Shown one piece after another: positions 16,666 through 34,733 of a stretch of 64,000 bases of DNA. The translations under genes and the position numbers were made by a program. This DNA comes from Alphaproteobacteria bacterium (GTDB lineage: Bacteria > Pseudomonadota > Alphaproteobacteria > JBFXJJ01), in the NCBI GenBank assembly GCA_050175015.1, contig JBFXJJ010000003.1, forward strand, positions 145,998-209,997, given 5' to 3'. Each line of letters begins with the position of its first letter. Position 1 is the first letter of the stretch. Under the pieces are notes generated by a model that was not told where the DNA came from, did not search any database, and saw only the letters and a list, made by a program, of their open reading frames with translations.

Positions 16666-16697
16666 TGCAAGAAGCACTAAATATACGCTTCTTGCAA
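16666..16697 (-). terminator. Hairpin downstream of xdhB (possible operon terminator, no clean U-run)
   Basis: 10-bp perfect stem tgcaagaagc/gcttcttgca with a 12-nt loop, ~50 nt beyond the xdhB stop. Confidence 0.3.
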
Positions 16698-16744
16698 CTA
16701 AAGACAACTTAAGGTAGATTGGTATTAATGTTATATAAAAATTA

Positions 16745-19093
16745 TTACTTTCTTATAACATTTTCTTTCATTCTTGTAATTGCTGCCAGAATTTTTTCTG
16801 GGGTTGCTGGCGGTTCAATCTCTGCTCTGAATTTATAATCACCAATACTGGCGATAGCGTCAGCAATTGCAAGCCAAACAGATATAGCCTGCATTATTGG
16901 TGGTTCGCCCGTTGCTTTTGAATGAAATATTGTGTCTTCTTTATTAGGTGAATTTTCTAAAAGTCTGACATTAAATTCTTTTGGAATATCACGGCTTACA
17001 GGAATTTTATAAGTTGACGGTGCGTGGGTTCTCAGGCGTCCTTCTTTGTCCCACCACAGTTCTTCCATAGTCATCCAGCCTAAACCTTGGACATATCCGC
17101 CTTCGACCTGCCCGAAATCAATCGCTGGGTTAAGAGAGTCGCCGCAATCGTGTAGAATATCCGCTCTTAAAACTCTGGTCTCGCCAGTCAGGGTATCTAT
17201 CGCAACTTCGGTGGCGCAGGTGCCATATGTAAAGTAATAAAAGGGGTGTCCTTGCATTTTTACGGGGTCGAAATAAATTTTAGGAGTTTTATAAAAGCCG
17301 TTTGACGACATAGAAACACGGTTCATATAACAAAGATTAGTAAATTCATTAAATGACATTACCGTATCTGCCGCTAAAACCTGATTGTTTTTGAAAACAA
17401 TCTTTTCTGTTTTGAAATGCTCTTTTGCAAAATCAATCATTTTGGTTTTTATTTTATACGCAGCATCTTTTATCGCCATACCATTCATATCGGCATCGGA
17501 AGAAGCTGCCGTTGCTGAGGTGTTAGGAACTTTATCGGTTCTGGTGGCATTTATTCTGATGTTTTCAATATCTACCTGAAAAATCTCGGCAACAACCTGC
17601 ATCATTTTCACTAAAAGACCTTGCCCCATTTCGGCGCCAGCTTGGTTAATTAGAATGCTGCCATCACGGTAAACGTGGATTAAGGCGCCAGCTTGATTCA
17701 AGAAAACCGCATTAAAAGAGATGCCGAATTTTAATGGGAATAAGGCTAAGCCTTTTTTGATAATGTCATTTTTAGCATTAAACTCTTTAATTTCCTGACG
17801 TCTTTTAACGATTTCGGCGGTTTTTTCAATATCTTCGAAAACTTCGCTGATAATATTATCGGTAATCTTTTGCCCGTAAGGAGTTACGTTGCGTTCTTCT
17901 TTGCCATAAAAGTTAGCTTTGCGGATTAAGATTGGGTCTTTTTTCAAATAAGAAGCAATGTGTTCTAAGCAGGCTTCAATTCCAATCATTCCTTGCGGGC
18001 CGCCAAAACCACGAAAAGCCGTGTTTGAAACGGTGTTGGTTTTGCATAAGAAGCCTTGCACTCTTACATCTGGCAGATAATAACAGTTATCAGAGTGGCA
18101 CAAAGCACGCTGGACAACAGGGGGAGACATATCGGCAACAATGCCCGATTTGGCAGCATAAATTAAATCAATGCCTTCAATCCGTCCATTGTCATCAAAG
18201 CCGACATCATATTTGACGAGGAAGTCGTGGCGTTTACCTGTAATAACCATATCATCATCACGGTTAAGACGCATTTTAACAGGCTTTTTGGTTTTCCAAG
18301 CAAGCAGAGCCGCAAAGGCTGCAAAAATGGTCGGCTGGCTTTCTTTGCCGCCAAAACCGCCACCCATACGGCGCATTTCAACGGTTATATGATTTTGAGG
18401 CAGACCTAAAACGTGCGAGACTCCCATCTGAGCTTCGGTTGGGTGCTGCGTTGAAATATAGATAATAAAGGTTCCATCTTCCAAAGGCGCCGCTACAGAA
18501 ATTTGGGTTTCTAGATAAAAGTGGTCTTGTCCGCCGATTTGAATTTGACCTTGGATACGGTTTTTTGCTTTTTCTAATGCCTTTTCATAATCGCCTCTAG
18601 CCATTACTTGCGGCTTGGTCAAAAAACTTTCTTTCTTTAAAGCATCTTCAATAGTTAAGATAGGTTCTAGAACTTCATAATCAACTTTAATTAGTTTGCT
18701 GGCTTCTTTTGCAGCTTTAATGGTGTTGGCAGCAATAATTGCTACGGGGTGTCCAACATATTCGGCATAATCTTCTGCTAGGGCAGGTTCATTTTTAAGA
18801 ATAGGACCAATATCGTTAACCCCAGGAATATCTTTAGCCGTCATAACAGCTTTTACGCCGTTTACTTTTAAAGCTTCCGAATAATCAATATTTTTGATTT
18901 TTGCATAAGCATAAGGACTTTGAAGAATATAACCTTGCAGGGTGTTAGGAAGCTCAGGCATATCGTCAACATAAATCGCTTCTCCCGTAACGTGAAGGTG
19001 AGCGCTTTCGTGAGCAACAGACTTATGAACGCCTCCGCTAATTTCAGATTTTAATTTATAGTCTTTATTTGCGTCTGATTTCATAATTCCCAT
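16745..19093 (-). CDS. xdhB: Xanthine dehydrogenase molybdopterin-binding subunit
   Basis: 782 aa. Aldehyde oxidase/xanthine dehydrogenase a/b hammerhead plus MoCo-binding signatures (GGGFGGKE, ...AFRGFGGPQG...). Overlaps the xdhA stop. Confidence 0.85.
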   Translation of the reverse strand: MGIMKSDANKDYKLKSEISGGVHKSVAHESAHLHVTGEAIYVDDMPELPNTLQGYILQSPYAYAKIKNIDYSEALKVNGVKAVMTAKDIPGVNDIGPILKNEPALAEDYAEYVGHPVAIIAANTIKAAKEASKLIKVDYEVLEPILTIEDALKKESFLTKPQVMARGDYEKALEKAKNRIQGQIQIGGQDHFYLETQISVAAPLEDGTFIIYISTQHPTEAQMGVSHVLGLPQNHITVEMRRMGGGFGGKESQPTIFAAFAALLAWKTKKPVKMRLNRDDDMVITGKRHDFLVKYDVGFDDNGRIEGIDLIYAAKSGIVADMSPPVVQRALCHSDNCYYLPDVRVQGFLCKTNTVSNTAFRGFGGPQGMIGIEACLEHIASYLKKDPILIRKANFYGKEERNVTPYGQKITDNIISEVFEDIEKTAEIVKRRQEIKEFNAKNDIIKKGLALFPLKFGISFNAVFLNQAGALIHVYRDGSILINQAGAEMGQGLLVKMMQVVAEIFQVDIENIRINATRTDKVPNTSATAASSDADMNGMAIKDAAYKIKTKMIDFAKEHFKTEKIVFKNNQVLAADTVMSFNEFTNLCYMNRVSMSSNGFYKTPKIYFDPVKMQGHPFYYFTYGTCATEVAIDTLTGETRVLRADILHDCGDSLNPAIDFGQVEGGYVQGLGWMTMEELWWDKEGRLRTHAPSTYKIPVSRDIPKEFNVRLLENSPNKEDTIFHSKATGEPPIMQAISVWLAIADAIASIGDYKFRAEIEPPATPEKILAAITRMKENVIRK

Positions 19094-20532
19094 ACCTCCG
19101 TAACTAATTCGGGTTTTGTAATTTGGGTATAAAGCCTTTCCAGCATATTCGCTGCAACGGTTGCTCGGTAATCGCCTGATGCTCTAAAGTCGCTTATGGG
19201 TTTAAAATCATCAGCAACGGCTTTTTTGGCATCTAAGAAAATGTCTTGGGTTACGTCTTTGCCATTAAGTGTTTTTTCAAGATTATAAGCAGGTTTGGGA
19301 ATTTCAGCCATACCGCCAAAGCCCGTTGTAAAATAAACTATTTTATTATTTTCAATTTTAAAGAAGAAAGCTCCGCAAACAGAAGAAATGTCTTGGTCGT
19401 GGCGTTTGGTAACTTTATAAACTTTGAATTGGAAACCTTTTTTTGGAATGGGAATCTTTATACTTCTGATAAATTCGCCTTCTTGTAAGGCAGTTTTACG
19501 ATAGCCTAAGAAAAATTCTTTAAGGGGAAGTTCTCTTGTTGCATCTTGCTTTTGTAAGTTTACGCTGGCTCCAAGAGCAATTAAAGATGGGGCAGAATCA
19601 CCAATAGGCGAAGCATTGCCGATGTTGCCGCCGATTGTTCCCAAATTGCGGATTTGGGTTGAACCTATTTTCCGTATTAATTTGCCATATTCGGGAATAT
19701 ATTTTTCAATTAAAGGCAGAGCCTTGACATAAGGAACGCTCGCACCAATTTCAATAAAATCAGAATTTTCGGTTAAAATATTGAGTTCGGGAATATCACA
19801 GGTGTGAATTACAACATCAAGTTTTCTATCTGCCTTAGTTACTAAAAGACCTAAATCAGTACCGCCTGCAAAAAGATAGGCACTGCTGTAATGATGATAA
19901 AGGGAACATAATTCTTTAAGGCTTTTAGGCGAAAAATAGGAAGTTTCATTATTGATTTCTAGGGTGTCTTGACGATTTCTAATCTGCTCAAACTTAGATA
20001 GAAGCTCGGCTTCATTACGGCTATACCAATCATCTTTTTTTCCACCAGTCCTTCTTGCAGCATCAATAATCGGGCGGTATCCAGTACAGCGGCATAAATT
20101 GCCCGCCAGCATTTCGTGGATCGTATCATCATCTTCATTACCTGTAACATCAGCGTGATACCACGCAAATAAAGACATTATGAAACCTGGGGTACAAAAA
20201 CCACATTGGCTGCCGTGTAGTTCATACATAGCTTGCTGCACAGGGTGAAGTTTGCCTTCTTTTGAAGCCAATCCCTCAACCGTTATCAGCATTTTGCCAT
20301 CAAGCTTAGGAACAAAAATTATGCAGCTATTGACCGCCTTATATTCAATTTTTCCATTAACAGGTTCTGCTAGAACAACAGTGCAGGCACCGCAATCCCC
20401 TTCAGCACAACCTTCCTTGGTACCATTTAGATTTTGATTTTTGCGCAAATATTCTAAAACCGTCGTCGTTGGCGGAAGATTAGAAATTTCGGTAAGCTCA
20501 CCATTTAATAAAAATCTTATTTTATTTGTCAT
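19081..20532 (-). CDS. xdhA: Xanthine dehydrogenase small subunit (2Fe-2S + FAD-binding)
   Basis: FLLNGE...CAEGDCGACTV and CGFCTPG/CRCTGY 2Fe-2S motifs, then a FAD-binding CO-dehydrogenase-type domain. Likely start MTNKIRF at 20532 with AAGGAG 7 nt upstream. Confidence 0.85.
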   Translation of the reverse strand: MTNKIRFLLNGELTEISNLPPTTTVLEYLRKNQNLNGTKEGCAEGDCGACTVVLAEPVNGKIEYKAVNSCIIFVPKLDGKMLITVEGLASKEGKLHPVQQAMYELHGSQCGFCTPGFIMSLFAWYHADVTGNEDDDTIHEMLAGNLCRCTGYRPIIDAARRTGGKKDDWYSRNEAELLSKFEQIRNRQDTLEINNETSYFSPKSLKELCSLYHHYSSAYLFAGGTDLGLLVTKADRKLDVVIHTCDIPELNILTENSDFIEIGASVPYVKALPLIEKYIPEYGKLIRKIGSTQIRNLGTIGGNIGNASPIGDSAPSLIALGASVNLQKQDATRELPLKEFFLGYRKTALQEGEFIRSIKIPIPKKGFQFKVYKVTKRHDQDISSVCGAFFFKIENNKIVYFTTGFGGMAEIPKPAYNLEKTLNGKDVTQDIFLDAKKAVADDFKPISDFRASGDYRATVAANMLERLYTQITKPELVTEVWEL

Positions 20533-20542
20533 TTTTACTCCT

Positions 20543-21883
20543 TTAAGCTCGTGGTTTTTGGAAGTTTCCATATCCACGTGCTACACAAATTCCGTCTTTG
20601 TGATCGTAAACTTTGCTACCTCTTACAAACGTCTGATATATTTTACCTTTAAAAATCATATTTTCAAATGGGGTAACTTTGCCCTTAGATAAAAAATCAT
20701 CGCCTTTAATAAGCCATTCATCAGCAGCATTAATTAAAACTATATCGGCATCTTTGCCAACTTTAATGGAACCCTTGCGGTCATCTAGTTTAAATTTTTT
20801 AGCAGTATTAAGAGAAGTTATTTCTGATAATTTCTTTAATGAAATTTTGCCTTTTAAATATCCTTCAGAAAACATATAAGGAAACAGGGTTCCAACTCCA
20901 GGAATCCCGCCATAAGCCTGCCAGATAGAACATTGTTTGCGTTCTTTAGGGCAGGGTGCGTGATCTGAGGTGATAAAAGATATTTTACCATTTTGAACAA
21001 GCTGCCACAATTCTTCTTTGTTATGATTTGGTTTTATGGGAGGACATATTTTAAGCGGCGCTCCAATTTTTTCAAAATCATCTAAGGTGAAAGCAAGATA
21101 ATGAGGACAGGTTTCGCCTGACAAATAAGGTTCATCAAGAAAAGACGCAGCTTTTGCTGTTCCAATATGAACAATGTGTAAGTCTGTTTGATATTTTTTT
21201 GCCAGAGATACAACTTTTTTTACAGCGGTAATTTCAGCTTCCTCAGGACGTGATTGAGAAAATTCCTTAGGTGAGTTGGATTCCTTGTTAACCTTTGCTT
21301 GATTGCAAACATCTTCATCTTCAGCGTGAACCATAACAATGCGGTCAAGTTCCTTAGCTGTTTTCAAAACCTCGTCAAGTTCGTCATACGAAACTTTAGG
21401 AAAAGTTTCCATACCAGAAAGCGTATAGGTTTTATATGCTGCCACATAAGGTGCAATTTCTTTCATATTTAAAGGAAAACCTTCAGTCATAGAAAGATGA
21501 CTTACTCCGCCGTGAAAAGCAAAGTCGATTATGGCTTTAGGTGAAACAATGCTTAATTTGTTTTCTAAATTGTTAAGACTAGTTACAGGAGGCAGAGAAG
21601 TGCAGGGCATATCAATGATAGTTGTTACTCCTCCAGAAGCTGCGGCACTTGTTCCTTGGAAAAAATCCTCTTGGGTTTCAAAACCTGGATCATTAAAATG
21701 AACGTGAGAATCTATTGCTCCAGGAAGAGCAAGCAAGCCTTTAGCCTCAACCGTATTTTTAGCATCAGGTAAGTCAGAGCCAATAGCGGCAATTTTGCCA
21801 TCTTTAACCAAAATATCGGCTAAAATGGTTTCTTCATTGCCCTCTATTAAGACTTCGGCTCCGCTAATTTTTAAATCATACAT
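20543..21883 (-). CDS. Cyclic amidohydrolase (allantoinase/hydantoinase/dihydropyrimidinase family)
   Basis: DSHVHFNDPGFE...GTSAAASGGVTTIIDMP metal-binding signature of the DHOase/allantoinase superfamily. 446 aa. Confidence 0.7.
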   Translation of the reverse strand: MYDLKISGAEVLIEGNEETILADILVKDGKIAAIGSDLPDAKNTVEAKGLLALPGAIDSHVHFNDPGFETQEDFFQGTSAAASGGVTTIIDMPCTSLPPVTSLNNLENKLSIVSPKAIIDFAFHGGVSHLSMTEGFPLNMKEIAPYVAAYKTYTLSGMETFPKVSYDELDEVLKTAKELDRIVMVHAEDEDVCNQAKVNKESNSPKEFSQSRPEEAEITAVKKVVSLAKKYQTDLHIVHIGTAKAASFLDEPYLSGETCPHYLAFTLDDFEKIGAPLKICPPIKPNHNKEELWQLVQNGKISFITSDHAPCPKERKQCSIWQAYGGIPGVGTLFPYMFSEGYLKGKISLKKLSEITSLNTAKKFKLDDRKGSIKVGKDADIVLINAADEWLIKGDDFLSKGKVTPFENMIFKGKIYQTFVRGSKVYDHKDGICVARGYGNFQKPRA

Positions 21884-21892
21884 TTTTACCCT

Positions 21893-24460
21893 CTATTTTT
21901 TAATATAACCCATAGGAAGATTAAAACGCTGTTTGCCGTCAAAGACTCTGAAAGCGCCTGCAACCGCAGAAGCCGTTGGCACTAAGCCGATTTCGCCTAA
22001 ACCTTTAGCACCGTAGGGACCATATTGATCAATCTCTTCAATCGGAATTACTTTCACTTCGGGTGTTTCTTTTACTCTTAAGATACCAATTTTTCCAAAT
22101 TTAGTGTGTACGGGATAACCATCTTTCCATTCACAGTCTTCGGTCAAAGCATATCCTAAACCCATATGGACAGCACCTTCTACTTGCCCTTCATAAAGGG
22201 TTTTGTTGATGATTCTTCCAGAATCGTGAGCGGCGATAACTTTTTTGATTCTACCTTCATCATCTAAGATAACGCATTGTGTCGCATAGCTGTAAGAATA
22301 ATGGGCAAAAGGTTTTTCAGGAAGTGTTCCTTTAAATGAATTATTCGTAAAATCACAAATCCAGTGTCCTTGATATTCCTTGCCAACAAGATTTTTTAAA
22401 CCATATTTATTAAGGTCTTGATTGAACTTCTGACAGGCATCAAGCATAGCATTTCCTAAAAGGGAGGTTCCTCTTGATGAGGTTGTCATACCGGTTGAGG
22501 CTTCAGAGCAGGTTTCATTTTTAACCGTTACAATTTCAGGGCTAAGTCCTGTTTCTTCACAAAATACTTGTAGAGCGACGGTGTGTACGCCCTGTCCCAT
22601 TTCGGTCCAGCCGTGATAAAGTTCAATTTTATCTTCAGCTTTGACAATTATTTTTACCAAGCTTTCATCAATACCGCCGTTGCCGACGCCAGTATTTTTC
22701 ACTCCGCAGGCAATGCCTGCAAATTTTGCGTTTTTGAAGTCATCTTTAACCGCAAGAAGCGTTTTCTTAAGTCCAACGCCTTGTTCTAAAATTTGTCCTG
22801 ATGTGATCATTGAACCAACATCAAGCGCATTATCATAACGGAACTGCCATCTGTCGAAGCCTCCTTGATGACATAAGTCATCAACGCAGGATTCCATAGC
22901 AAAGTTGGATTGGTTAACGCCAAATCCACGCATAGCTCCGCAAGGGACATTGTTAGTATAGATAGCCTTGGCTTCAATATCGAGATTAGGAACTTCGTAA
23001 GCTCCAGAAGAATGTCCTGCCGCACGTTCCATAACTTTCATACCAACAGAGGCATAAGCTCCAGTGTCGCCCAAAATATTGGCTTTTAATGCGGTGAGTT
23101 TGCCATTCTTGTCGCAAGCTAAGGTATATTCCAGTTTCATAGGGTGGCGTTTGGGGTGCATAAGCATTGATTCTTCTCGTGACAGCCTAACCCTTACAGG
23201 GCATTGGCAGAGCATCGAGTATACTGCTGCGTGTCCTTGAACGGTTAAATCTTCTTTACCGCCAAAAGCACCGCCATTTTGAACTTGAATAACATTAATG
23301 TTATTTTCTTCAAGACCTGTTATTAAGGAAATCTGTTTGCGGTCGACATAGACCCCTTGTCCTTGAGAATAAACCGTCAGTTTGCCTTCATCTGTAGGCA
23401 GAGCAACCGCACATTCGGTTTCTAGAAAAGCGTGTTCAATACGTTGGGTTGTCCAAACACCTTTTGTAACATATGCCGCATTTTTTATGGCATTTTCAGG
23501 ATCGCCGATCTTAAGCGAGCTTACAGATAGGACATTGTTTTCATCCCCGTCGTGAACTATTGGAGCATTGGGTAAAATGGCATCTTCCATAGAGCAAACA
23601 GGTGTTAAAACTTCATAGTCAACTTTTATCAATGAAGCTGCAAAACGAGCGGTTTCTTCACTGTCGGCAACCACTCCTGCAATCACATCTCCAATATAAT
23701 TGGTAACATCGCCCTCTTTTATCATAAATGGCCAGTCTAGCCTTACTAATCCAACTTTATTTTTAGTTGGCAGATCTTTTGCGGTTATAATCCTTACAAC
23801 GCCCTTAACTTTAAGAGCTTCCGAGGCATCAATGTTTAAAACCCTAGCTTTGGGATATTCTGAAAATTTAAGCGCTCCGAATTTCATACTCTCAAAAGTC
23901 ATATCAAAAACATAAGGACGCTTTCCTATAACCGCCATTGCGGTTTCATATTTTGAGGTTCGGCTTCCTATTTTGCCATCTTCTTTAGGAATAGGAGGAG
24001 CTTCTCCTCTTAGAATTTCTGCTGTAAAAAGAACGGCATCAATAATTTTTTTATAGCCCGTACAGCGGCAGATATTGCGGTTAATCGCAGCTTTTATATC
24101 ATCAATACTGGGATTAATATTATCTTTTAGAAGGCAGTATGCACTCATAACAATTCCAGGGGTGCAAAAGCCACATTGAATTCCGCCTTTTTCAACAAAA
24201 GCCCTAATAAAAGCCTGTTTAAAATCTTCAGGAAGCCCTTCCGCTGTTATAACTTCTTTCCCTGCAATTTTGCTTAAAGGCGTAACACAGGAAAGAGTTG
24301 CTTTGCCATCGACACACACCGTGCAGGCTCCGCAACTTCCCTGAGAACAGCCATCTTTAGGGGTGGTATCACCCCTAAAAAGACGTAAGTAGTTTAACAA
24401 AGAAATTTTGCTATCGCCTGAAAATTTTATTTTTTCTCCATTTACAATAAATTCCAGCAT
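21893..24460 (-). CDS. Second molybdenum hydroxylase with N-terminal 2Fe-2S ferredoxin domain fused to MoCo subunit (E. coli XdhD-like)
   Basis: N-terminal CSQGSCGACTV and CGFCTPG/CRCTGY motifs. The remainder is homologous to Mo-binding large subunits (GGAFGGKE). No FAD domain. 855 aa. Confidence 0.75.
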   Translation of the reverse strand: MLEFIVNGEKIKFSGDSKISLLNYLRLFRGDTTPKDGCSQGSCGACTVCVDGKATLSCVTPLSKIAGKEVITAEGLPEDFKQAFIRAFVEKGGIQCGFCTPGIVMSAYCLLKDNINPSIDDIKAAINRNICRCTGYKKIIDAVLFTAEILRGEAPPIPKEDGKIGSRTSKYETAMAVIGKRPYVFDMTFESMKFGALKFSEYPKARVLNIDASEALKVKGVVRIITAKDLPTKNKVGLVRLDWPFMIKEGDVTNYIGDVIAGVVADSEETARFAASLIKVDYEVLTPVCSMEDAILPNAPIVHDGDENNVLSVSSLKIGDPENAIKNAAYVTKGVWTTQRIEHAFLETECAVALPTDEGKLTVYSQGQGVYVDRKQISLITGLEENNINVIQVQNGGAFGGKEDLTVQGHAAVYSMLCQCPVRVRLSREESMLMHPKRHPMKLEYTLACDKNGKLTALKANILGDTGAYASVGMKVMERAAGHSSGAYEVPNLDIEAKAIYTNNVPCGAMRGFGVNQSNFAMESCVDDLCHQGGFDRWQFRYDNALDVGSMITSGQILEQGVGLKKTLLAVKDDFKNAKFAGIACGVKNTGVGNGGIDESLVKIIVKAEDKIELYHGWTEMGQGVHTVALQVFCEETGLSPEIVTVKNETCSEASTGMTTSSRGTSLLGNAMLDACQKFNQDLNKYGLKNLVGKEYQGHWICDFTNNSFKGTLPEKPFAHYSYSYATQCVILDDEGRIKKVIAAHDSGRIINKTLYEGQVEGAVHMGLGYALTEDCEWKDGYPVHTKFGKIGILRVKETPEVKVIPIEEIDQYGPYGAKGLGEIGLVPTASAVAGAFRVFDGKQRFNLPMGYIKK

Positions 24461-27055: not shown

Positions 27056-28316
27056 TCGTTAGATGTTTGTTTTCCATTAGGACTTTTCCAGCACAAATTG
27101 TGGTATCAACCTGAGCAGAATTAAAGCCAAAAACTAAATGTCCTAAGACATTGCTGGCATCAAGAGGGGTAGGTGGGTATTGATCCAGCATTACAATATC
27201 AGCGGCTCCGCCTTCTTTAAGTTCACCTAAACCGATGTTGTTCCAGATACGGTTAGCAATTTTAGGATTGTTAAACCATAAGGCAGATGCTCCTTCAACA
27301 AAGCCCGCGGAAGGATTTCTTTGGTTGTATTTTTGCGCCCAGATGGCACAGCGAACTTCTTCACGCATATCAACTGTCATTGCATCTGTTCCGAGACCAA
27401 CGAGAATGCCTTTTTCAAACATTTTAACCGTGTTGGCAATTCCAACAGCATTATTCAAATTAGACTGAGGATTGTGAACAACCATAGTATTCGTTTTTGC
27501 TAAAAGATCTAATTCATTGTCATTGGTATGAACGCAGTGAACACATATGGTGTCTTTGCCTAGAACGCCCATTTTGTTGAAGCGTTCAACAACTCTTAAA
27601 CCGTGTTCTTTGACGCAGGCATCTTCATCACTTTCAGCTTCTGCCGTGTGAACGTGAAAACCTGTTTTTAGATCTTTAGCGAAAGAAACGCATTTTTCTA
27701 AAGTTTTATCACTTACGGTAAAAGAGGCGTGAAGTCCGAATAACGCCGTTAGCTGCTCATCATTTTCTTTCTGGCAGCGTTTAATAAAGTTGACGTTTTC
27801 CTCAATACCTTCTTCGGCAATTTTTTCACCGTCTCTATCGGAAACTTCATAGCATAAACAAGAGCGCAAACCAGTTTCTTTAACAGCTTCGGCAATGGTA
27901 TCAAGAGAACCTGTAATTGCAAAAGGACTGGCGTGATGATCGATTAAAGTTGTGGTTCCGCTTTTTATAGCGGCGATAAGGGGGAATAAGGCACTATAGT
28001 AGGTGTCTTCTAGTGAAAGTTTGGTATCTAAACGCCACCAAAGGTTTTTAAGCACTCCTCCAAAATCATAAGCTGGTTCAGCTTTGCCAAGACCTCTTAC
28101 TAAGGTGCTGTAAAAATGCATATGAGCATTAATGATTCCTGGGATAACGATTCTGCCGTCGGCGTTTATTTCTTTATCAAAAGAGCCTTTGATTTCATCA
28201 TCTTTGGCGATTTTAACAATCTTATTATTTTCAACCAAGATAGAATGATTAGGCAAAACGCGACCGTTTTCACCACCTGTAATAACAAGTGCATTGCGAA
28301 CGATTAAATTGGACAT
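26985..28316 (-). CDS. SsnA-like amidohydrolase (guanine/cytosine deaminase-chlorohydrolase family)
   Basis: HxH metal motif (INAHMHF) and TIM-barrel amidohydrolase layout. Probable start MSNLIVRNALVI at 28316 with a GGAG RBS. Confidence 0.65.
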   Translation of the reverse strand: MSNLIVRNALVITGGENGRVLPNHSILVENNKIVKIAKDDEIKGSFDKEINADGRIVIPGIINAHMHFYSTLVRGLGKAEPAYDFGGVLKNLWWRLDTKLSLEDTYYSALFPLIAAIKSGTTTLIDHHASPFAITGSLDTIAEAVKETGLRSCLCYEVSDRDGEKIAEEGIEENVNFIKRCQKENDEQLTALFGLHASFTVSDKTLEKCVSFAKDLKTGFHVHTAEAESDEDACVKEHGLRVVERFNKMGVLGKDTICVHCVHTNDNELDLLAKTNTMVVHNPQSNLNNAVGIANTVKMFEKGILVGLGTDAMTVDMREEVRCAIWAQKYNQRNPSAGFVEGASALWFNNPKIANRIWNNIGLGELKEGGAADIVMLDQYPPTPLDASNVLGHLVFGFNSAQVDTTICAGKVLMENKHLTIDVDEKEAAAKSMEAAKNLWNRF

Positions 28317-28387
28317 ATTTTTCTCCAGATAAAAATATTTTGAACTAAATATTTTATTTGGTTTATCCAAAATTTACAACGATTTTC

Positions 28388-29749
28388 TCAATTTTGTTTA
28401 TTCTCGTCATCATCTTCCTGTGAAGGTGCTGCTACTTCCTTCAATCTTTCTTTTTCATCAGCAGGAAGAAACTTATCCGCTAAAGCCCAATACAAAGATT
28501 GTTCACAAAAAGTCTTTGAAACCGCATAAGAAATCATAGATACGGCGAGTAGAGAGATGGTTGTTTTTTGGTCGCTGGTCATTTCCATAACAATAACAGC
28601 TGCAGTTATTGGAGAGTGGACAACGCTAGAGAAATAGCCTGCCATACACATAATGATTATAACAGATTTTGTCATATCTGGAAAAAAGTCAGCGATATTA
28701 GCGCCAATGCCTGCTCCAATAGATAGTGATGGCGCAAAAATGCCGCCAGGAATACCACTTATATATGAAAGAATGGTTGCAAGAAATTTATAAAAACCAA
28801 ACCATAAGGTTTCAATATCTTGCCCTTGAATTAACTTACAAGCTTGTTCATATCCTGTGCCAAAAGTAAGATTACCAGAAAGTCTTCCTATGATTGCAAT
28901 TAAAAGACCGCAGATCGCTGCAAAAATTACAGGACGGGCTTTTGTGAAAGCACTTAGCTTTTTGCCAAGAACTTTATCGGTATGGATAATGGTATAATTA
29001 AAGATTGTGCCGATAAGACCGCAGACTATACCGCATAAAATTACTAGATAGACCCAGTTTTCGTGAGAATCTATTAAAAGATTACTGCGTCCGAAATAGG
29101 TATAGTTGCCAGTAATAGACATAGAAACAATACCAGCAATAACAACGGTTGTTAAAACGATACCGCTGGTTTTGGTTTCAAAGGAACGGCTTAATTCTTC
29201 AATGGCAAAAACAATTCCTGCTAATGGAGTATTAAATGCTGCTGCAACTCCTGCGGCACCTCCTGCCAGAATTAATGATTTTCTAGTCTTGTAACTAGAA
29301 ATATGAAGGAAGCGTCCTAAAAAAGACATAATTGACGCTCCAATCTGAACCGTAGGACCTTCTCTGCCAATTGAAGCTCCGCCACAAAGACCAAGCATTG
29401 TTATAAAAATTTTACCGCAGGCTATTTTCATAGATAAGAGTTTAAAGCATTCGGCTTTTTTGCGAATGTGCATTGCTGCGATAGTCTGTGGAATGCCGCT
29501 GCCTTCAGATCCTTGGAAAAAAGACTTAGTTAAATAAACACCAAAAGCCATAAAAGATGGTGTTATGATTAAGGCAAGCCAATTATTTTTTTCCAGCATT
29601 TTAAAGAAAAGAGTGTCGGCAAAAAAACTGCCTTTGGCAAAAAAAACGGCAACAATCCCGACTGCCATAGCGCCAAGCCAATACACAAGGCGATATAACC
29701 ATATATTGGGTGATACCCACCACCGGTGATTATGCCTGAAAATTATCAT
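28388..29749 (-). CDS. ClC family voltage-gated chloride channel/H+-Cl- antiporter
   Basis: GSGIPQ, GREGP and GxFxP selectivity-filter motifs. About 10-12 TM helices. Confidence 0.8.
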   Translation of the reverse strand: MIIFRHNHRWWVSPNIWLYRLVYWLGAMAVGIVAVFFAKGSFFADTLFFKMLEKNNWLALIITPSFMAFGVYLTKSFFQGSEGSGIPQTIAAMHIRKKAECFKLLSMKIACGKIFITMLGLCGGASIGREGPTVQIGASIMSFLGRFLHISSYKTRKSLILAGGAAGVAAAFNTPLAGIVFAIEELSRSFETKTSGIVLTTVVIAGIVSMSITGNYTYFGRSNLLIDSHENWVYLVILCGIVCGLIGTIFNYTIIHTDKVLGKKLSAFTKARPVIFAAICGLLIAIIGRLSGNLTFGTGYEQACKLIQGQDIETLWFGFYKFLATILSYISGIPGGIFAPSLSIGAGIGANIADFFPDMTKSVIIIMCMAGYFSSVVHSPITAAVIVMEMTSDQKTTISLLAVSMISYAVSKTFCEQSLYWALADKFLPADEKERLKEVAAPSQEDDDENKQN

Positions 29750-29991
29750 TTTGAAATGTTTGTTTTCTTTGTTATTTTTTAGTCTTACACAACTAAAGAC
29801 AAGGTATATTACTTAAAATAATCAATGTCAACCAAGCTTTGAGAGTTTTTTTAAATGTTTTCGTATTAAAATTTTTTAAGAGATACAGCAAAGTTTTAGG
29901 ATAAAATTGTTATAGATTTTAAGGCGCGGTATTTTTTAGATTGAATAGTAATTTTTTTGTTTTTGTTAGAAGCAAATAACTTGGCAAATTA

Positions 29992-31137
29992 CTAAATTCT
30001 AACTCCTAATAGGCGGATTAAAGCAGTTTCGCAAGGAACAGATTCATTTAAGGCAATCATATGACCTAGGCCTTGAGCTTCGAGTTTACCAATTTCGTCA
30101 ACGACTAATATATCGGCATTTTTGCGGGCATCTATAATTGTTTTTTTAGCATAACTCCAAGCATCATCATAAAAGTCAAACCAGAGTCCATTTTTTGCAG
30201 GAGTTTCTCGGCGGCGAGCTAGTGGTATATGTTCACCTGTTGCGACATTCTCAACGTCATATCCTGAAGAATCAAAATCACCATTAAGCGAAGGTTGTAA
30301 AATGCCGCCAACTTTAAAACCTTGTTGCGATAATTCCGAAACAACACGTTTTAAAAAGCTGGTTTTTCCGCTTCTTTTCTCGCCTTTTATTTCTAAAGTA
30401 AAAGGAGGAACGTCAGGAAGAAGAGGCTTAATTTCCTCCCAATTATCTTTAGTATTAAGGTTAAAACTTCCAAAATCATTAGAGTATGGTAAGGCAAAGC
30501 CAATTTTATCCATAATATTATCAAAACGAGCTGTTTGAGGGGTTTCTTTTAAAACGTCTAATGCCGTTGTTTGAGACAACCAGACAGGCTGAATCTTAGT
30601 ATTGTTTTTTTCATAGAATAACGCATTATGATTGCTGTTATAAGCGGCATTACAAAGAGTGTGCCAAGAAGATATTTGGCAGGATATACGATCAACGGCG
30701 TGAAATAAAATGCCTTTTTCCAAATCATTTTTAAAAAAGCGTATTCCGGCCTGAACCGAAGAGAATGGTCCTTGTTCATAATCGTTATTAACGACAATAG
30801 AGAGATTTAAACTGCCGAGTTTAACATCGCACGGGGGCGTCAAACCATTTAAAAAGCTAAGTTCTTCAAAATAAGAGGATATATGATGCCCGAGCACGAT
30901 AACCGCTTTTTTTCCTCCGGCTCTACGAAAAACATCAAGCAGCAACATAATTAATGGCCGGTCTTGATGTTTTAAGAGCCCCTTAGGATATCCCATACGG
31001 CTTGATTTACCTCCTGCCATAATAATTAATGGCGGTAAATCATTAGCACTAATCAAGGATTTTATTGATGTTCTCACTTCTTCCCAGTGTGATAACATTA
31101 TGTTCCTTTGTTTTTCTGCTAGTTTCACGAGAGCCAA
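29992..31137 (-). CDS. Fusion: MocA/YgfJ-like molybdenum-cofactor nucleotidyltransferase + P-loop NTPase (THEP1/MobB/YqeC-like)
   Basis: N-terminal LIIMAGGKSSRMGYPKGLL (MobA-like NTP-transferase). C-terminal Walker A GEKRSGKTSFLKR and Walker B LVVDEIGKLE. Confidence 0.6.
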   Translation of the reverse strand: MALVKLAEKQRNIMLSHWEEVRTSIKSLISANDLPPLIIMAGGKSSRMGYPKGLLKHQDRPLIMLLLDVFRRAGGKKAVIVLGHHISSYFEELSFLNGLTPPCDVKLGSLNLSIVVNNDYEQGPFSSVQAGIRFFKNDLEKGILFHAVDRISCQISSWHTLCNAAYNSNHNALFYEKNNTKIQPVWLSQTTALDVLKETPQTARFDNIMDKIGFALPYSNDFGSFNLNTKDNWEEIKPLLPDVPPFTLEIKGEKRSGKTSFLKRVVSELSQQGFKVGGILQPSLNGDFDSSGYDVENVATGEHIPLARRRETPAKNGLWFDFYDDAWSYAKKTIIDARKNADILVVDEIGKLEAQGLGHMIALNESVPCETALIRLLGVRI

Positions 31138-32590
31138 TACCTGTCAGCAAAAGACCAATGTTTTCATTAGAGTTTATTAATCCTTTAGTTGCCATTTCGA
31201 TAACAGCGGCAACGCTAGCGGTTCCTGTAGCCGAAACATTAATATTAGTTGCTTTTTTGGTAAGCTTGTTTGCTTTATCTAAAGTTTTTTCATCTGCGAT
31301 TAATGGTAAACCTCCAGATTCAAGCATACCGATTACGACTTCTAAGCCATCATACGTCGTATCGTCTAAGATGCCTTCCGCTATGCTTTCAGGAACATTG
31401 TCAGCCCAAGCTTTAAAGAAATTACTGCGCTGTGCAGCAACATCAAGTAAGACTTTTTGTAAGGCTTGGTTTGATGAAAAGTTAGAAGACAGCTCTTTTG
31501 CAAAACTGTTAAGCTCTTGAGGATATTTTTCTAAAATATCTTTAGGATCTATGTCAGTTTCAACGGCGCTTTTTAAATTTTCAGCTAAAGTCACAGCTCC
31601 TTTTAAAGAAGCTTCTTTCAATATCGCAAAGTAAGATTTGGCAAGCGGATAGCAACTTGCAGTCTGCACAGTATAAAATCTAGGCAGTTTTTTTATTATT
31701 CCAAGTTTTAAAAGATTTTGTATGCCATTGATCATAGATTTAGCTAGGCCGCCGCCTCCAATTTGAACAATAAAGGCATCAATGTCTGTTTGATATTTTT
31801 CCATATCAAAGAAAAACTCATAGGCTAAAGGTTCTGCTCCCTCAATGCTTGACCAAATATCATAACCATAGCAAGAAAAGGGAACAAAATTAAGCTTGTT
31901 CAAAGCTTCTCTAAAACGGATATTGCAGGGATCTCCTTCACCAACTTGTCCCTCGCGAGATACTTTTACGACTTTGGCATCTAAATTGGTTAAAAGATTT
32001 TCAATTTTGCTGTCTACATGTTCTGGAACAAAAGTATAAAGAGGATAATCAAAAGCTTTTGCCGCAGCAGAGGCACCTAAAGCTGCATTGCCGCAACTGA
32101 AAATAGCTAAAGGCTTTTTATGTCCGCCTTTTAACATTCTTAATGTTTCCAAGTAGATAATAGAACCGGCTAAATGACGGGATTTATGTGAACCCATAAG
32201 CTGCAGAGTTTCGTTTTTAGCAAAAATATTGCAATCAGCCTTTATTGATTTAGCAAGCTCGTCAGCTTTGAATAATGGCGTTCTAACAAATCCTTTGCTT
32301 GTATTTTTTTCACACATTTTGCTGGCAGTTTTTACCATTTTCTGCCATTCATCAGATTTATTATGAACATTAGCCAAGTGCCAGCTTCCAAGTAGTTCTT
32401 TAAAAGCATTAAAGGACAATTCGCCGCTGTTATAACGATTTCTAATTTCTTCAATTAAATTTTGAGGAAAATCACCATCTTCAAATTTCAAAACAAAAGG
32501 ATGAGACGCTGCCTCGGTACTTTCGGGGCAGCGCAATAATCCTTCTTCCAAATTATATGATTTTCTACAAATTGGACAGTAAAGTTTCAT
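31049..32590 (-). CDS. PLP-dependent fold-type-II enzyme (threonine-synthase-like) with N-terminal Cys-rich zinc-ribbon-like motif
   Basis: GSHKSRH lysine motif (compare tGSFKDRg). Begins CPICRKSYNLEEGLLRCPE. 513 aa. Its start is 1 nt from the upstream gene stop. Confidence 0.5.
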   Translation of the reverse strand: MKLYCPICRKSYNLEEGLLRCPESTEAASHPFVLKFEDGDFPQNLIEEIRNRYNSGELSFNAFKELLGSWHLANVHNKSDEWQKMVKTASKMCEKNTSKGFVRTPLFKADELAKSIKADCNIFAKNETLQLMGSHKSRHLAGSIIYLETLRMLKGGHKKPLAIFSCGNAALGASAAAKAFDYPLYTFVPEHVDSKIENLLTNLDAKVVKVSREGQVGEGDPCNIRFREALNKLNFVPFSCYGYDIWSSIEGAEPLAYEFFFDMEKYQTDIDAFIVQIGGGGLAKSMINGIQNLLKLGIIKKLPRFYTVQTASCYPLAKSYFAILKEASLKGAVTLAENLKSAVETDIDPKDILEKYPQELNSFAKELSSNFSSNQALQKVLLDVAAQRSNFFKAWADNVPESIAEGILDDTTYDGLEVVIGMLESGGLPLIADEKTLDKANKLTKKATNINVSATGTASVAAVIEMATKGLINSNENIGLLLTGIGSRETSRKTKEHNVITLGRSENINKILD

Positions 32591-32591
32591 C

Positions 32592-34058
32592 TTATAAAGC
32601 TTTCAATAGGCCAGTCATATCATTGAATTCACGAATTAAATCGTCCCATTCACTTACTTGAGCGAATATTGAATCCCATGTTTCTGGTTTCCAAAGTTCA
32701 TTCAAATCTTTGCTTTCTTTTCCTTGCTGTTCAACCCAAGTAAAGTATTTCAAGTTATGGATAGCTTTTCTATCATAATATGAAAGTTCTTTTAAGTTGG
32801 ATTTGTCAGCAGCATAGAGGCAAGATTCTAAATCACAATTTCCTCTGATTTCACCATATTCACCATGTTTCTCACGTTCTTCAATGACACGAGAAGTATA
32901 CATTTCGGCAGAATCTGTAAACATTGTGTAGATTACATCGTTTTCATCCATTTCATAATATTTTGCCATTTTGACAGCAGAAACAAGGTTAGAAATAGAT
33001 GAAATACCCATAAGGTTAAGATTTTTGATAACTTCGTCAGAAACACCTCTAGACTTAAGAACTTTGTGTCCAGATGGTTCGTTGAAGAGACGGAGAAGTC
33101 TCATGCAATCTTCATCGTCAATAGCAACAACCATATCAGTATTACGGGAGTTATGAACCCAAGGAACGTGTTTATCACCAATACCTTCAATGCGATGTCC
33201 ACCAAAACCGTTAAGTAACAAAGTTGGGCACTGTAAAGCTTCAGATGCTGCGATTTTGAGGCTTGGAGATACTTTCTTTAAATAATCGCCAGCACCAATA
33301 GTTCCAGCACTTCCTGTCGCACTTACAAAGCCTGAAAGTCTTTTTTGTTTATTAGACAGAGTTCCAAAATGCTCTTCAATAGCTTTAGCTGTAACGTGAT
33401 AGTGCCAAATTGGATTACCAAATTCATCAAATTGATTGAAAATTACGCAGTCTTTACGGTTTTTGCGTATATCCCAGCAAGCGTCATAGATTTCTTTAAC
33501 GTTGCTTTCACATCCCGGAGTCGCAATGATTTCGGCACCGATACTTTTTAACCAATCAAAGCGTTCTCTGCTCATTTCTTCAGGAAGAATAGCAACAGAA
33601 GTACAGCCAAGCAAAGTACCGTCAAAAGCACCGCCACGACAGTAGTTGCCAGTTGATGGCCATACTGCTTTTTGTGTGGTTGGGTCAAATGATCCGCTAA
33701 CTAATCTTGGGGCTAAACAGCCGAAAGCAGCACCAACTTTATGAGCACCAGTTGGAAAATACTTACCAACCATACCAATAATTCTAGCTTTTACGCCGGT
33801 GATTTCTGAAGGAATTTCGAAAGTGTTAACATCGCCATAGAGTTCCGTTTTAGGATCGTTTCTCCAAGTGATACGGAAAAGGTTAATTGGGTTTACATCC
33901 CAAAATCCAACGCCTTTTAATTTTTTCTTGATTTTCTCAGGAATTTTGTCAGGGTGGCGCATTTCCTCAAATGTTGGGACAATAATATTACGTTCACGAC
34001 AACGCTCAACTGTTTTTGCTAGGACCTTTTTATCAATGTTTTCAATTATTTTTTTCAT
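32592..34058 (-). CDS. PLP-dependent fold-type-II enzyme, TrpB/cysteine-synthase-like
   Basis: FPTGAHKVGAAF (compare the TrpB HTGAHKIN lysine motif). 488 aa. First gene of the long operon. Confidence 0.5.
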   Translation of the reverse strand: MKKIIENIDKKVLAKTVERCRERNIIVPTFEEMRHPDKIPEKIKKKLKGVGFWDVNPINLFRITWRNDPKTELYGDVNTFEIPSEITGVKARIIGMVGKYFPTGAHKVGAAFGCLAPRLVSGSFDPTTQKAVWPSTGNYCRGGAFDGTLLGCTSVAILPEEMSRERFDWLKSIGAEIIATPGCESNVKEIYDACWDIRKNRKDCVIFNQFDEFGNPIWHYHVTAKAIEEHFGTLSNKQKRLSGFVSATGSAGTIGAGDYLKKVSPSLKIAASEALQCPTLLLNGFGGHRIEGIGDKHVPWVHNSRNTDMVVAIDDEDCMRLLRLFNEPSGHKVLKSRGVSDEVIKNLNLMGISSISNLVSAVKMAKYYEMDENDVIYTMFTDSAEMYTSRVIEEREKHGEYGEIRGNCDLESCLYAADKSNLKELSYYDRKAIHNLKYFTWVEQQGKESKDLNELWKPETWDSIFAQVSEWDDLIREFNDMTGLLKAL

Positions 34059-34208
34059 AAATTATTAGCTCCAGAAATAAAAATTAAATACTGCGAATGC
34101 AGTGTATTAAGAAAATTAGAACTTAAATATAATAAGATGAGATAAAATAAAGACAAGCTTATTTTACACGTGTCAATAAAACTATTTTTTATAAAAAAAT
34201 TTATAATA

Positions 34209-34577
34209 TTAACGAGGATAACCGACTCTTACGTCTGTGCTATTAATACTTGGTTCAAGGTAGCAGTCTGGCTCGGCAAGAGTTCGATAACAGTATACTT
34301 GAGGTCTTTTACCTGCAGGTTGAGGTTTTTGGCGGCATACTTCGCCATTGTCTATTTGTGCCCGAGGCGTTGAGCAGTCAAGCCCAGTCATCTTTGAAGC
34401 GATATGATCGCCAATTGTTTTTTGAGTTCCCATAACAGAAGCAGCTTCAACTCCGACAAGGGTTGCTGCAGGAGAGAGTCCCAAAGGCATTACACTCGAT
34501 TCTGTAGTCAAAAAACAGCCTGATAATAACAAAAACATTGGAATCATAAGGCTTTTTATTAGGCTTTTTAGAAACAT
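34209..34577 (-). CDS. Small Cys-containing lipoprotein
   Basis: Signal peptide plus lipobox LLLSGC (start taken at MFLKSL). Same strand and upstream of the purine operon. Confidence 0.45.
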   Translation of the reverse strand: MFLKSLIKSLMIPMFLLLSGCFLTTESSVMPLGLSPAATLVGVEAASVMGTQKTIGDHIASKMTGLDCSTPRAQIDNGEVCRQKPQPAGKRPQVYCYRTLAEPDCYLEPSINSTDVRVGYPR

Positions 34578-34733
34578 AGTTTTTGTCCTTGAATTAATGT
34601 ATATGTTTAATTTTACCAACTTAAAATTAACAAAAACCTAATTTAAAAGTTAAAAATTAAAAAATCTTTATAATAAGTTCATCTTCTAGTTTGCGTTCTT
34701 TGACTAACAATACTATTCTTTGGTAAAAATAAT

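Follow-up and report, generated by a model that had tools for sequence, protein, structure and literature searches.

A 64-kb stretch of DNA from an uncultured, low-GC alphaproteobacterium (contig JBFXJJ010000003.1, positions 145,998 to 209,997, of assembly GCA_050175015.1; referred to here as the window) carries a block of ten consecutive and tightly packed open reading frames (ORFs) at positions 16745-34058 of its minus strand. This block probably encodes a variant of the reductive pathway of purine and uric acid degradation, which proceeds through 2,8-dioxopurine. An earlier note, compiled from the letters of the window, had placed all ten ORFs on the minus strand, as their coordinates bear out, and had listed a domain content that Pfam and NCBIfam scans confirm at the domain level. 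Family memberships, domain architectures, catalytic motifs and cross-phylum synteny are the observations on which the following account is built. From the upstream end, the genes are:

32592-34058, minus: pyridoxal phosphate (PLP) enzyme of the CysK/CBS fold, 488 residues, with N- and C-terminal helical extensions (Pfam PALP)
31049-32590, minus: divergent ThrC-like PLP enzyme, 513 residues, with an N-terminal Zn ribbon (Pfam PALP)
29992-31098, minus: fusion of a MocA/MobA-like nucleotidyltransferase (NTP_transf_3, residues 38-204) and a P-loop NTPase (NTPase_1, DUF2478 and MobB, residues 248-367), 368 residues
28388-29749, minus: canonical ClC-type Cl-/H+ exchanger or channel (Pfam Voltage_CLC, 304 bits)
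26985-28316, minus: SsnA amidohydrolase, 443 residues from the ATG at 28316 (NF005540, 541 bits against a cut-off of 444; TIGR03314, 498 against 455.5)
24461-26950, minus: full-length flavo-iron-sulfur (FeS) reductase of the dihydropyrimidine dehydrogenase (DPD) type, 829 residues from the TTG at 26950 (aligns with pig DPD, 1gt8)
21893-24460, minus: fused 2Fe-2S and molybdopterin enzyme of the TIGR03311 family, 855 residues (892 bits against 830)
20543-21883, minus: allantoinase-type cyclic amidohydrolase, 446 residues (a marginal pass of TIGR03178, 368.8 bits against 357.85)
19081-20532, minus: XdhA, small subunit (2Fe-2S and FAD) of xanthine dehydrogenase (XDH) (TIGR02963, 576 bits against 467)
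16745-19084, minus: XdhB, molybdopterin subunit of XDH (TIGR02965, 1148 bits against 849.5), overlapping xdhA at an ATGA

The longest ORFs underlying these genes span 16745-19093, 19081-20577, 20543-21883, 21893-24460, 24461-27055, 26985-28370, 28388-29749, 29992-31137, 31049-32590 and 32592-34058, and for SsnA, the DPD-type reductase, the MocA-NTPase fusion and xdhA a start other than that of the longest ORF is better supported. The first three of these starts (ATG 28316, TTG 26950, which is preceded by AGGAG, and ATG 31098) are backed by ribosome-binding sites and coincide with the NCBI gene calls (MGD9638064-MGD9638081 for the proteins of the window, with MGD9638079 for the fusion), as does the start of the 779-residue XdhB (MGD9638072); the xdhA start at ATG 20532 is indicated solely by an upstream AGGAG ribosome-binding site. 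With the best-supported starts, the successive junctions along the block measure 1, -50, 242, 71, 34, 0, 9, 10 and -4 nt, the second being the 50-nt overlap of the MocA-NTPase gene with the gene upstream of it. All junctions that had been singled out earlier are seen in the sequence, namely the ATGA overlap of xdhA and xdhB, the 1-nt gap at 32591, the 242-nt gap at 29750-29991 and the abutment at 24461/24460, where the TAA stop of the reductase gene meets the ATG of the next. The tightness of the block thus stands as first described, but the statement that every gap except the 242-nt one is an overlap or no longer than 17 nt does not, as two further gaps (71 and 34 nt) exceed that size; the discrepancy arises because the earlier note took longest-ORF starts, from which the corrected starts differ.

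Molybdenum enzymes, SsnA and a DPD-type reductase

The identities proposed earlier for XdhA and XdhB hold, each protein scoring above the curated cut-off of its model. XdhA displays the Pfam domains Fer2, Fer2_2, FAD_binding_5 and CO_deh_flav_C, and XdhB presents the active-site motifs GGKE, FRGFGGPQ and TGEPP. The second molybdenum enzyme of the block, the 855-residue TIGR03311 protein, bears GGKE, MRGFG and GEIG at the corresponding places; the GGKE, FRGFG/MRGFG and GEPP/GEIG motifs are taken here to be the equivalents of Glu802, Arg880 and Glu1261 of bovine XDH. The XdhD protein of Escherichia coli has GSKQ and YQGYG instead, together with an insertion bearing Glu606. Because the motifs differ and the Glu606 insertion is missing, the window enzyme is not XdhD-like in detail: the XdhD signature was rejected on the absence of that insertion, the Gln-for-Arg swap of XdhD is lacking as well and the protein falls far below the cut-off of TIGR03313 (202 bits against 1102), such that the earlier description of it as XdhD-like is not supported. 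A different part of the same description was borne out, as the fused 2Fe-2S and molybdenum cofactor (Moco) protein passes one of the "selenium-dependent" models of Haft (TIGR03311, "selenium-dependent XDH"); this membership is the sole pointer to selenium in the block. The nearest solved structures are the aldehyde oxidoreductase of Desulfovibrio and the large molybdenum subunit of nicotinate dehydrogenase (3hrd). The molybdenum domain begins at about residue 302, and the molybdenum-binding segment given for the 2,8-dioxopurine dehydrogenase (DOPDH) spans residues 307-839 (Liu et al., 10.1101/2025.04.24.650524); the criterion set there is an identity of at least 46% over 80% coverage. Compared by architecture and length, the protein resembles XdhAC of Clostridium sporogenes, a single polypeptide of about 850 residues that unites the 2Fe-2S and Moco domains and has no FAD subunit (Liu et al., 10.1101/2025.04.24.650524). 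The TIGR03311 enzyme is regarded as a candidate urate 6-dehydroxylase (2,8-dioxopurine dehydrogenase).

The cofactor gene of the block encodes a MocA-like domain joined to a P-loop NTPase domain with the Walker A motif GEKRSGKT. It had been likened to YgfJ, a membership that was not upheld, since the MocA-like domain falls short of TIGR03310 (65.4 bits against 186.45) and matches only the Pfam family NTP_transf_3. As had been stated earlier for all but yqeC, the 64-kb window holds no selD, yqeB, yqeC, ygfM or xdhC-type chaperone gene by tblastn and NCBIfam scans: SelD found no match in the NCBIfam scans of the window ORFs, the accessory proteins YqeB (TIGR03309) and YqeC (TIGR03172) and a chaperone of the XdhC/CoxI family were likewise not found in the window, and the E. 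coli YgfM protein matches there only the FAD domain of XdhA. The place expected for the xdhC chaperone, directly 3' of xdhB, is occupied by genes for two CheY-like response regulators (15293-15838 and 15985-16518, minus strand), paralogs that each consist of a single domain and a C-terminal tail of some 50 residues. In one Bacteriovoracaceae locus (L075), two receiver-domain-like ORFs flank a sensor-histidine-kinase-like ORF near the cluster, all three being judged by eye from their sequences.

SsnA passes both of its curated models, in agreement with the earlier assignment, is 36% identical to E. coli SsnA and is named "putative aminohydrolase SsnA" by NCBI; its best matches, like those of the molybdenum enzyme, come from Bacteriovoracaceae and Ignavibacteria. 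Next to it is encoded the DPD-type reductase, which had been called YgfK-like. This protein fails the YgfK model by a wide margin (TIGR03315, 156 bits against 835) and instead aligns end to end with residues 75-996 of pig DPD (1gt8), the alignment spanning the N-terminal FeS, FAD, NADPH and FMN domains and the C-terminal di-cluster domain. The five-domain layout and the catalytic Cys, here within the motif SLSCPQG, are thus common to both proteins, although identity is low (212 bits over the 829-residue query). The position of Asn668 of pig DPD is occupied by Ser, and neither the PreA model (NF006183, 202 bits against 335) nor PF01180 recognizes the protein. Its gene context, unlike that of pig DPD, is one of purine rather than pyrimidine catabolism, and this makes it a candidate 2,8-dioxopurine reductase.

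Related loci and the pair of PLP enzymes

A scan of GTDB species representatives with SsnA yielded 80 closest loci at 56-66% identity, and all of their ORFs were clustered into families. None of the 80 is labelled Alphaproteobacteria, in agreement with the earlier remark that the gene set is rare in this class. Dozens of loci in other phyla show synteny with subsets of the block, which is hence no chance arrangement. The DPD-type protein is found in 57 of the 80 SsnA loci; of the 52 loci with both genes, 49 have the two side by side. A recurrent cluster in Ignavibacteria, KSB1 and others unites, in this order, the DPD-type reductase, SsnA, YgeY, a ThrC-like PLP enzyme (family c4) and a hydantoinase with a molybdenum subunit, a 2Fe-2S subunit, YgeW, a CysK-like PLP enzyme and a MocA-like protein; the YgeY and YgeW members of these related clusters pass equivalog models. 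Clusters of Bdellovibrionota/Bacteriovoracaceae share most of these families, but a DPD-type reductase was not found there. Relatives of the TIGR03311 enzyme, 59% identical at most, are encoded directly upstream of SsnA in L065, L075, L089 and L090 (57-59% identity). Five other loci have genes of the XdhAB type; in L026, L029, L058 and L076 these come directly before the reductase and SsnA, and in L018 one gene intervenes. The Ignavibacteria loci L010-L047 (for example L012, 15087-17800) contain a third type of molybdenum subunit, of about 752 residues with a separate 2Fe-2S subunit of about 155 residues, with the motifs GGKD, MRGFG and GEP; it belongs neither with XdhD of E. coli nor with the TIGR03311 enzymes.

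The closest relative of the block is the cluster of L083/84, in which both sub-blocks are kept but transcribed divergently. One unit comprises SsnA (65% identity) and the reductase (66%), with YgeW and YgeY directly after the reductase; the other comprises the CysK-like protein (73%), the ThrC-like protein (51%) and, at the same position as in the window, the MocA-NTPase ortholog (37%). Among the environmental loci, only L083/84 share with the window the NTPase fusion and the ThrC-like variant of 513-519 residues.

The two PLP enzymes are the least familiar members of the block. The first had been described as TrpB-like, whereas its motifs and an AlphaFold2 model reveal the fold of CysK and cystathionine beta-synthase (CBS). 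The motifs of the PLP lysine and of the Asn loop align with those of CBS, and the model (mean confidence, pLDDT, 83) has a core that matches O-acetylserine sulfhydrylase, CBS and beta-cyanoalanine synthase, to which helical N- and C-terminal extensions unique to this protein are added. The best NCBIfam match, cysK, reaches only 109 bits against a cut-off of 351, and the fold search returned generic cores only, with no clue to a substrate. Relatives number at least 8000 candidates, the best 120 of which share 65-88% identity, mostly 65-73%, and come from several phyla; databases name them only "PLP-dependent enzyme" or "cysteine synthase". Judged from its sequence relatives, the CysK-like protein is a member of a large, highly conserved and uncharacterised family.

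The second PLP enzyme is a more isolated protein. Models of threonine synthase give it 80 bits at most against cut-offs of 303-421, and it is a distant homolog of the c4 family (62 bits against the c4 profile). Its own family is small, with 235 clusters at E≤1e-30 among 1.84 billion representatives. The CysK-like gene occurs in 20 of the 80 SsnA loci as well as in L083-L087 and L090, and it co-occurs with a ThrC-like gene in 14 loci. The two genes are adjacent in the window, in L065 and L075 (Bacteriovoracaceae), in L083/84, in L086/87 (Bdellovibrionales), in L090 and in L085 (Elusimicrobiota); the adjacent pair lies at 8742-11467 in L085 and at 8699-11455 in L086. The L085 pair has only unrelated genes around it, further purine genes being absent within 10 kb, and an adjacency that persists even there suggests joint action of the two enzymes, either in successive steps or as a complex. 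The diaminopropionate ammonia-lyase YgeX of E. coli has only a local match of 46 residues in the window and no match in any of the 80 SsnA loci; going by gene position, the conserved PLP pair appears to stand where YgeX would be.

The ClC protein, by contrast with its neighbours in the block, is absent from the related loci: tblastn and blastp returned no match in the 80 SsnA loci or in L083-L087, and there is no Pfam call of Voltage_CLC among the gene calls of L083-L090. Its motifs GSGIP, GREGP and GIFAP, at residues 83, 128 and 336, are those of a canonical member, with a score below the ClcA equivalog cut-off (216 bits against 350), and the gene is regarded as a lineage-specific passenger with no evident role.

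A probable variant of the reductive route and its competitors

The earlier note had compared the block with a gene set that it credited to Haft and Self, and it did so accurately: ygeW-Z, yqeA-C, ygfJ, ygfK, ssnA, ygfM and ygfN (xdhD) are given by them as a set that co-occurs (PMC2276186). Its likening of the block to the E. coli ygf neighbourhood, as a molybdenum-hydroxylase system of purine catabolism, is sound as to the relation, but membership in the YgfK, XdhD and YgfJ families is not borne out. The function attached to the set, that of a putative selenium-dependent hydroxylase, has in turn been superseded, as the same genes now represent the reductive urate (2,8-dioxopurine) pathway. This oxygen-independent pathway, first worked out in gut bacteria, was established in 2025 with E. 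coli and clostridia, and it accounts for the ygf/yge neighbourhood of E. coli (Li et al., 10.1101/2025.05.19.654654; Liu et al., 10.1101/2025.04.24.650524). According to the same two preprints, the reduction of urate to 2,8-dioxopurine is the work of XdhD/YgfM or, in C. sporogenes, of the selenium-dependent XdhAC (DOPDH); SsnA acts with YgfK or the PydA-like UacX to dearomatise the pyrimidine ring and open it; HyuA opens the hydantoin; YgeW/YqeA or UacY, and YgeY, strip the two ureido groups; and YgeX converts 2,3-diaminopropionate to pyruvate. SsnA is recommended there as the marker enzyme of the pathway.

The E. coli K-12 cluster, ygeW-ygeX-ygeY-hyuA-yqeA / yqeBC / mocA-ygfK-ssnA-ygfM-xdhD (Li et al., 10.1101/2025.05.19.654654), and the block have in common an SsnA ortholog, a 2Fe-2S-bearing molybdenum enzyme of the XDH family, a flavo-FeS reductase of the NAD(P)H type beside SsnA, a cyclic amidohydrolase, a gene for a Moco nucleotidyltransferase and a separate XDH of the XdhA/B/C type nearby. 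They differ in that the window reductase is of the DPD type, the molybdenum enzyme is of the TIGR03311 type without the FAD subunit YgfM, the amidohydrolase is of the allantoinase rather than the HyuA type, two other PLP enzymes take the place of YgeX, the MocA-like domain is fused to an NTPase, a ClC gene is added and YgeW, YqeA, YgeY, YqeB, YqeC and purine permeases are lacking from the window. Clostridial systems share with the window the single-polypeptide 2Fe-2S and Moco enzyme, a reductase related to PydA rather than YgfK (UacX, in Clostridioides difficile) and an additional XDH, separate from the first, which supplies the pathway with urate. UacX is devoid of the FAD/NADPH domain of the window reductase, and clostridial clusters, unlike the window, encode YgeX, YgeY, HyuA and either YgeW or UacY and require SelD and YqeB/C. 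Environmental SsnA clusters (L010-L090; Ignavibacteria, KSB1, Bdellovibrionota/Bacteriovoracaceae and metagenome contigs) share with the window the DPD-type reductase beside SsnA, the PLP pair and the MocA-like protein, along with XdhAB in some loci and the TIGR03311-type enzyme in Bacteriovoracaceae. Unlike the window, they contain YgeW, YgeY and a hydantoinase of the D-hydantoinase type, sometimes with a carbamate kinase, have no ClC gene and differ in gene order. A literature search turned up no description of these environmental SsnA clusters, nor any that places the DPD-type reductase or the PLP pair in the pathway.

A route can be drawn from these parts in which the substrates, the roles of the PLP pair and of the amidohydrolase and the co-transcription of the genes are read from family membership and gene neighbourhood. 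XdhAB would convert hypoxanthine and xanthine to urate, from which the TIGR03311 enzyme would take the 6-oxo group to give 2,8-dioxopurine. The DPD-type FAD/FMN/4Fe-4S reductase, in place of YgfK or UacX, would then reduce the pyrimidine ring with NAD(P)H, and SsnA would hydrolyse the reduced ring to ureidomethyl-hydantoin, which the allantoinase-type amidohydrolase would probably open. The two ureido groups would be removed by enzymes encoded outside the window, with YgeW or UacY and YgeY presumably located elsewhere in the genome, and the PLP pair, of fold type II, would release pyruvate and ammonia in place of YgeX. The fusion of the MocA-like and P-loop NTPase domains would make the dinucleotide form of the molybdenum cofactor.

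Several points weigh against this reading. YgeW, YgeY and YqeA were not found in the 64-kb window by tblastn with E. coli queries or by NCBIfam scans, nor was UacY, as judged by NCBIfam scans only, and the pathway as encoded in the window is incomplete for want of these enzymes. No purine or urate transporter is present in the window, a purine permease having been sought by family scans. The substrate of the reductase is assigned from gene neighbourhood only, because the YgfK, PreA and PF01180 models all fail. The TIGR03311 family is named for xanthine dehydrogenase, and the 855-residue enzyme could on that account be a second XDH or a purine hydroxylase. The ThrC-like protein of the window is only 23-27% identical to the c4 family found in related clusters, the amidohydrolase is of the allantoinase type, unlike that of every other reductive cluster, and the 242-nt gap carries promoter-like elements. 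On balance, the block is still considered a probable variant of the reductive pathway.

The amidohydrolase is ambiguous as to its role. It exceeds TIGR03178 marginally, its nearest solved structures are allantoinases and NCBI names it AllB, yet it stays well below the cut-offs of two other allantoinase models (NF004839, 349 bits against 631; NF005960, 292 against 688) as well as that for D-hydantoinase (TIGR02033, 259 against 393). The hydantoinases of all other reductive clusters, and HyuA of E. coli, are of the D-hydantoinase type. A scan of metagenomes (JGI) for its relatives reached 41% at best, on a contig of 1.7 kb, and gave no neighbourhood from which a context could be read. The enzyme may therefore be a hydrolase recruited for ureidomethyl-hydantoin or a true allantoinase of the oxidative branch. 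If the latter were the case, XdhAB and the amidohydrolase would form an oxidative route from urate via allantoin to allantoate, with uricase and the later enzymes encoded elsewhere, and the TIGR03311 enzyme, the reductase and SsnA would be a separate reductive branch whose hydantoinase lies elsewhere with YgeW and YgeY. Such a hybrid arrangement would explain the allantoinase-like models and structures, the departure from the D-hydantoinase type used by all other reductive clusters and the position of the gene directly upstream of xdhA, and the fact that further steps of the reductive route are likewise missing from the window is in keeping with it. However, uricase, 5-hydroxyisourate (HIU) hydrolase, 2-oxo-4-hydroxy-4-carboxy-5-ureidoimidazoline (OHCU) decarboxylase, allantoicase and allantoate amidohydrolase were not found in the window either, two of the three allantoinase models are failed by a wide margin and the gene sits inside the block, separated by 9 nt from the TIGR03311 gene and by 10 nt from xdhA. 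It is moreover chemically plausible that an allantoinase was recruited, given that ureidomethyl-hydantoin and allantoin differ by a single methylene. The hybrid arrangement is regarded as unlikely.

The 242-nt gap and the divergent arrangement in L083/84 suggest that the block descends from at least two ancestral units, which may or may not be co-transcribed here as the single operon that the earlier note had proposed. Taken further, the same features could mean that two unrelated operons have come to lie in tandem, with the CysK-like, ThrC-like and MocA-NTPase trio acting in amino-acid metabolism, in sulfur or selenium metabolism or in cofactor maturation rather than as the terminal module of purine degradation. 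CysK-type enzymes can make cysteine or selenocysteine, the gap holds promoter-like elements, the trio diverges from the SsnA-reductase unit in L083/84 and the pair is found alone among unrelated genes in the Elusimicrobiota locus. Set against this, genes for YgeW, YgeY, carbamate kinase, SsnA and molybdenum enzymes surround the pair in several phyla, YgeX is absent from all of those loci and the Moco nucleotidyltransferase of the trio ties it to the molybdenum enzymes, rendering a fortuitous juxtaposition rather improbable. Least credible, and very improbable, is that the DPD-type protein and one or both amidohydrolases constitute a reductive pyrimidine (Pyd) pathway merely neighbouring the XDH genes, for although the reductase is similar to dihydropyrimidine dehydrogenase over its full length and cyclic amidohydrolases resemble dihydropyrimidinase, the protein fails the PreA model, lacks a PF01180 match and has Ser at the Asn668 position, it is nearly always encoded beside SsnA, the published marker of the urate pathway, in clusters with YgeW, YgeY and molybdenum hydroxylases, and no beta-ureidopropionase is present.

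With the block read as a variant of the reductive pathway, a wider proposal can be put forward tentatively, the chance that both of its parts hold being judged somewhat below even: that the DPD-type fusion is the prevalent 2,8-dioxopurine reductase of environmental bacteria, and that the PLP pair is a previously unrecognised two-enzyme terminal module that replaces diaminopropionate ammonia-lyase and may act by beta-elimination, with ammonia or urea lost from diaminopropionate or beta-ureido-alanine. Published neighbourhood criteria are built on the YgfK family, PF01180 or an F420 enzyme, and they probably miss the DPD-type reductase, as this protein matches neither the YgfK model nor PF01180; criteria based on BLAST with clostridial proteins are similarly likely to under-count the environmental version. 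The logic of the pathway, already established, would be unchanged. Beyond gut Bacillota and Enterobacteria, the variety of the pathway has hardly been mapped, and the block together with about 90 related loci would represent a widespread environmental version with a DPD-type reductase, another family of molybdenum enzyme and a PLP pair for YgeX. The trait would thereby be extended to Alphaproteobacteria, in which it would permit the oxygen-independent use of host or environmental purines by this bacterium, and subjects for enzymology are offered, among them a candidate reductase for 2,8-dioxopurine that would be of a new type and the large, conserved family of PLP enzymes.

Transcription signals, composition and neighbouring genes

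Three noncoding features accompany the block:

34059-34208, minus: upstream intergenic region with a promoter-like TTGTCT-16-TATTAT and the motif CTTGTCTTTA
29750-29991, no strand assigned: the 242-nt intergenic gap, in which TTGACA and the shared motif CTTGTCTTTA occur
16666-16696, minus: 13-pair hairpin about 50 nt after the xdhB stop, a possible terminator with a weak U tract (fold z-score -1.6)

The 10-nt motif CTTGTCTTTA occurs exactly at 34148-34157 and 29794-29803 (minus strand), in both intergenic regions of the block, and a copy with one mismatch, GTTGTCTTTA, lies at 16699-16708 (minus strand), after xdhB and upstream of the CheY-like genes. In two of these three places the motif forms a -35-like TTGTCT hexamer that is followed, after 16 nt, by TATTAT or TATATT. 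As a shared regulatory motif it was rejected, for L084 does not conserve it and a search tolerating one mismatch shows no enrichment; a consensus scan for promoters was equally uninformative, with 52 promoter-like sites against 52.7 expected. No stable hairpin and no credible small ORF were found in the 242-nt gap, and an Rfam scan of 15000-36000 by E-value gave no Moco or purine riboswitch. A sub-threshold match to the manA RNA at 32167-32347 (minus strand; 27.8 bits against a gathering threshold of 55.2) falls inside the ThrC-like coding sequence and is most likely due to chance. At 34209-34619 (minus strand), 150 nt upstream of the block, is encoded a predicted lipoprotein of 136 residues with a signal peptide-like N-terminus and a lipobox-like LLSGC, for which no family match was found.

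Horizontal acquisition, a prospect raised in the earlier note, finds no backing in composition. The window has a GC content of 36%, the GC content at third codon positions is 0.30 in the block against 0.27 elsewhere in the window and the relative synonymous codon usage distances of the block are inside the range of housekeeping genes, such that a recent transfer was rejected. The low GC content and the best matches of SsnA and the molybdenum enzyme in other phyla had also cast doubt on the alphaproteobacterial label; this doubt was dismissed, as Ffh and nine proteins of the block are identical to those of a metagenome-assembled genome that NCBI names "Alphaproteobacteria bacterium", and the remaining Ffh matches with a named source are alphaproteobacterial too. 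Housekeeping genes flank the block on both sides, with ftsY, mtaB, dapF, ffh, trmD, rplS and asd on one and bamB, der, murL, murD and pmbA on the other. At 44688-47406 (plus strand), the gene of the MurL-like epimerase, which scores 465 bits with NF041275, below the cut-off of 700, overlaps murD by 20 nt; the MurD2/MurL route, by which L-glutamate enters peptidoglycan, is known from Xanthomonadales, and here it appears in an alphaproteobacterium. A fusion of 531 residues at 42978-44573 (minus strand) joins AmmeMemoRadiSam system B (MEMO-like) to system A (AMMECR1-like). Farther along, four tandem paralogous ORFs of 706, 414, 694 and 676 residues (48807-56398, plus strand) are 23-29% identical to each other, and three of them have weak TrbL/VirB6 matches in Pfam (E about 1e-3, below gathering). 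This array resembles the tandem VirB6-like array of type IV secretion in Rickettsiales, which suggests that the metagenome-assembled genome may be Rickettsiales-like.

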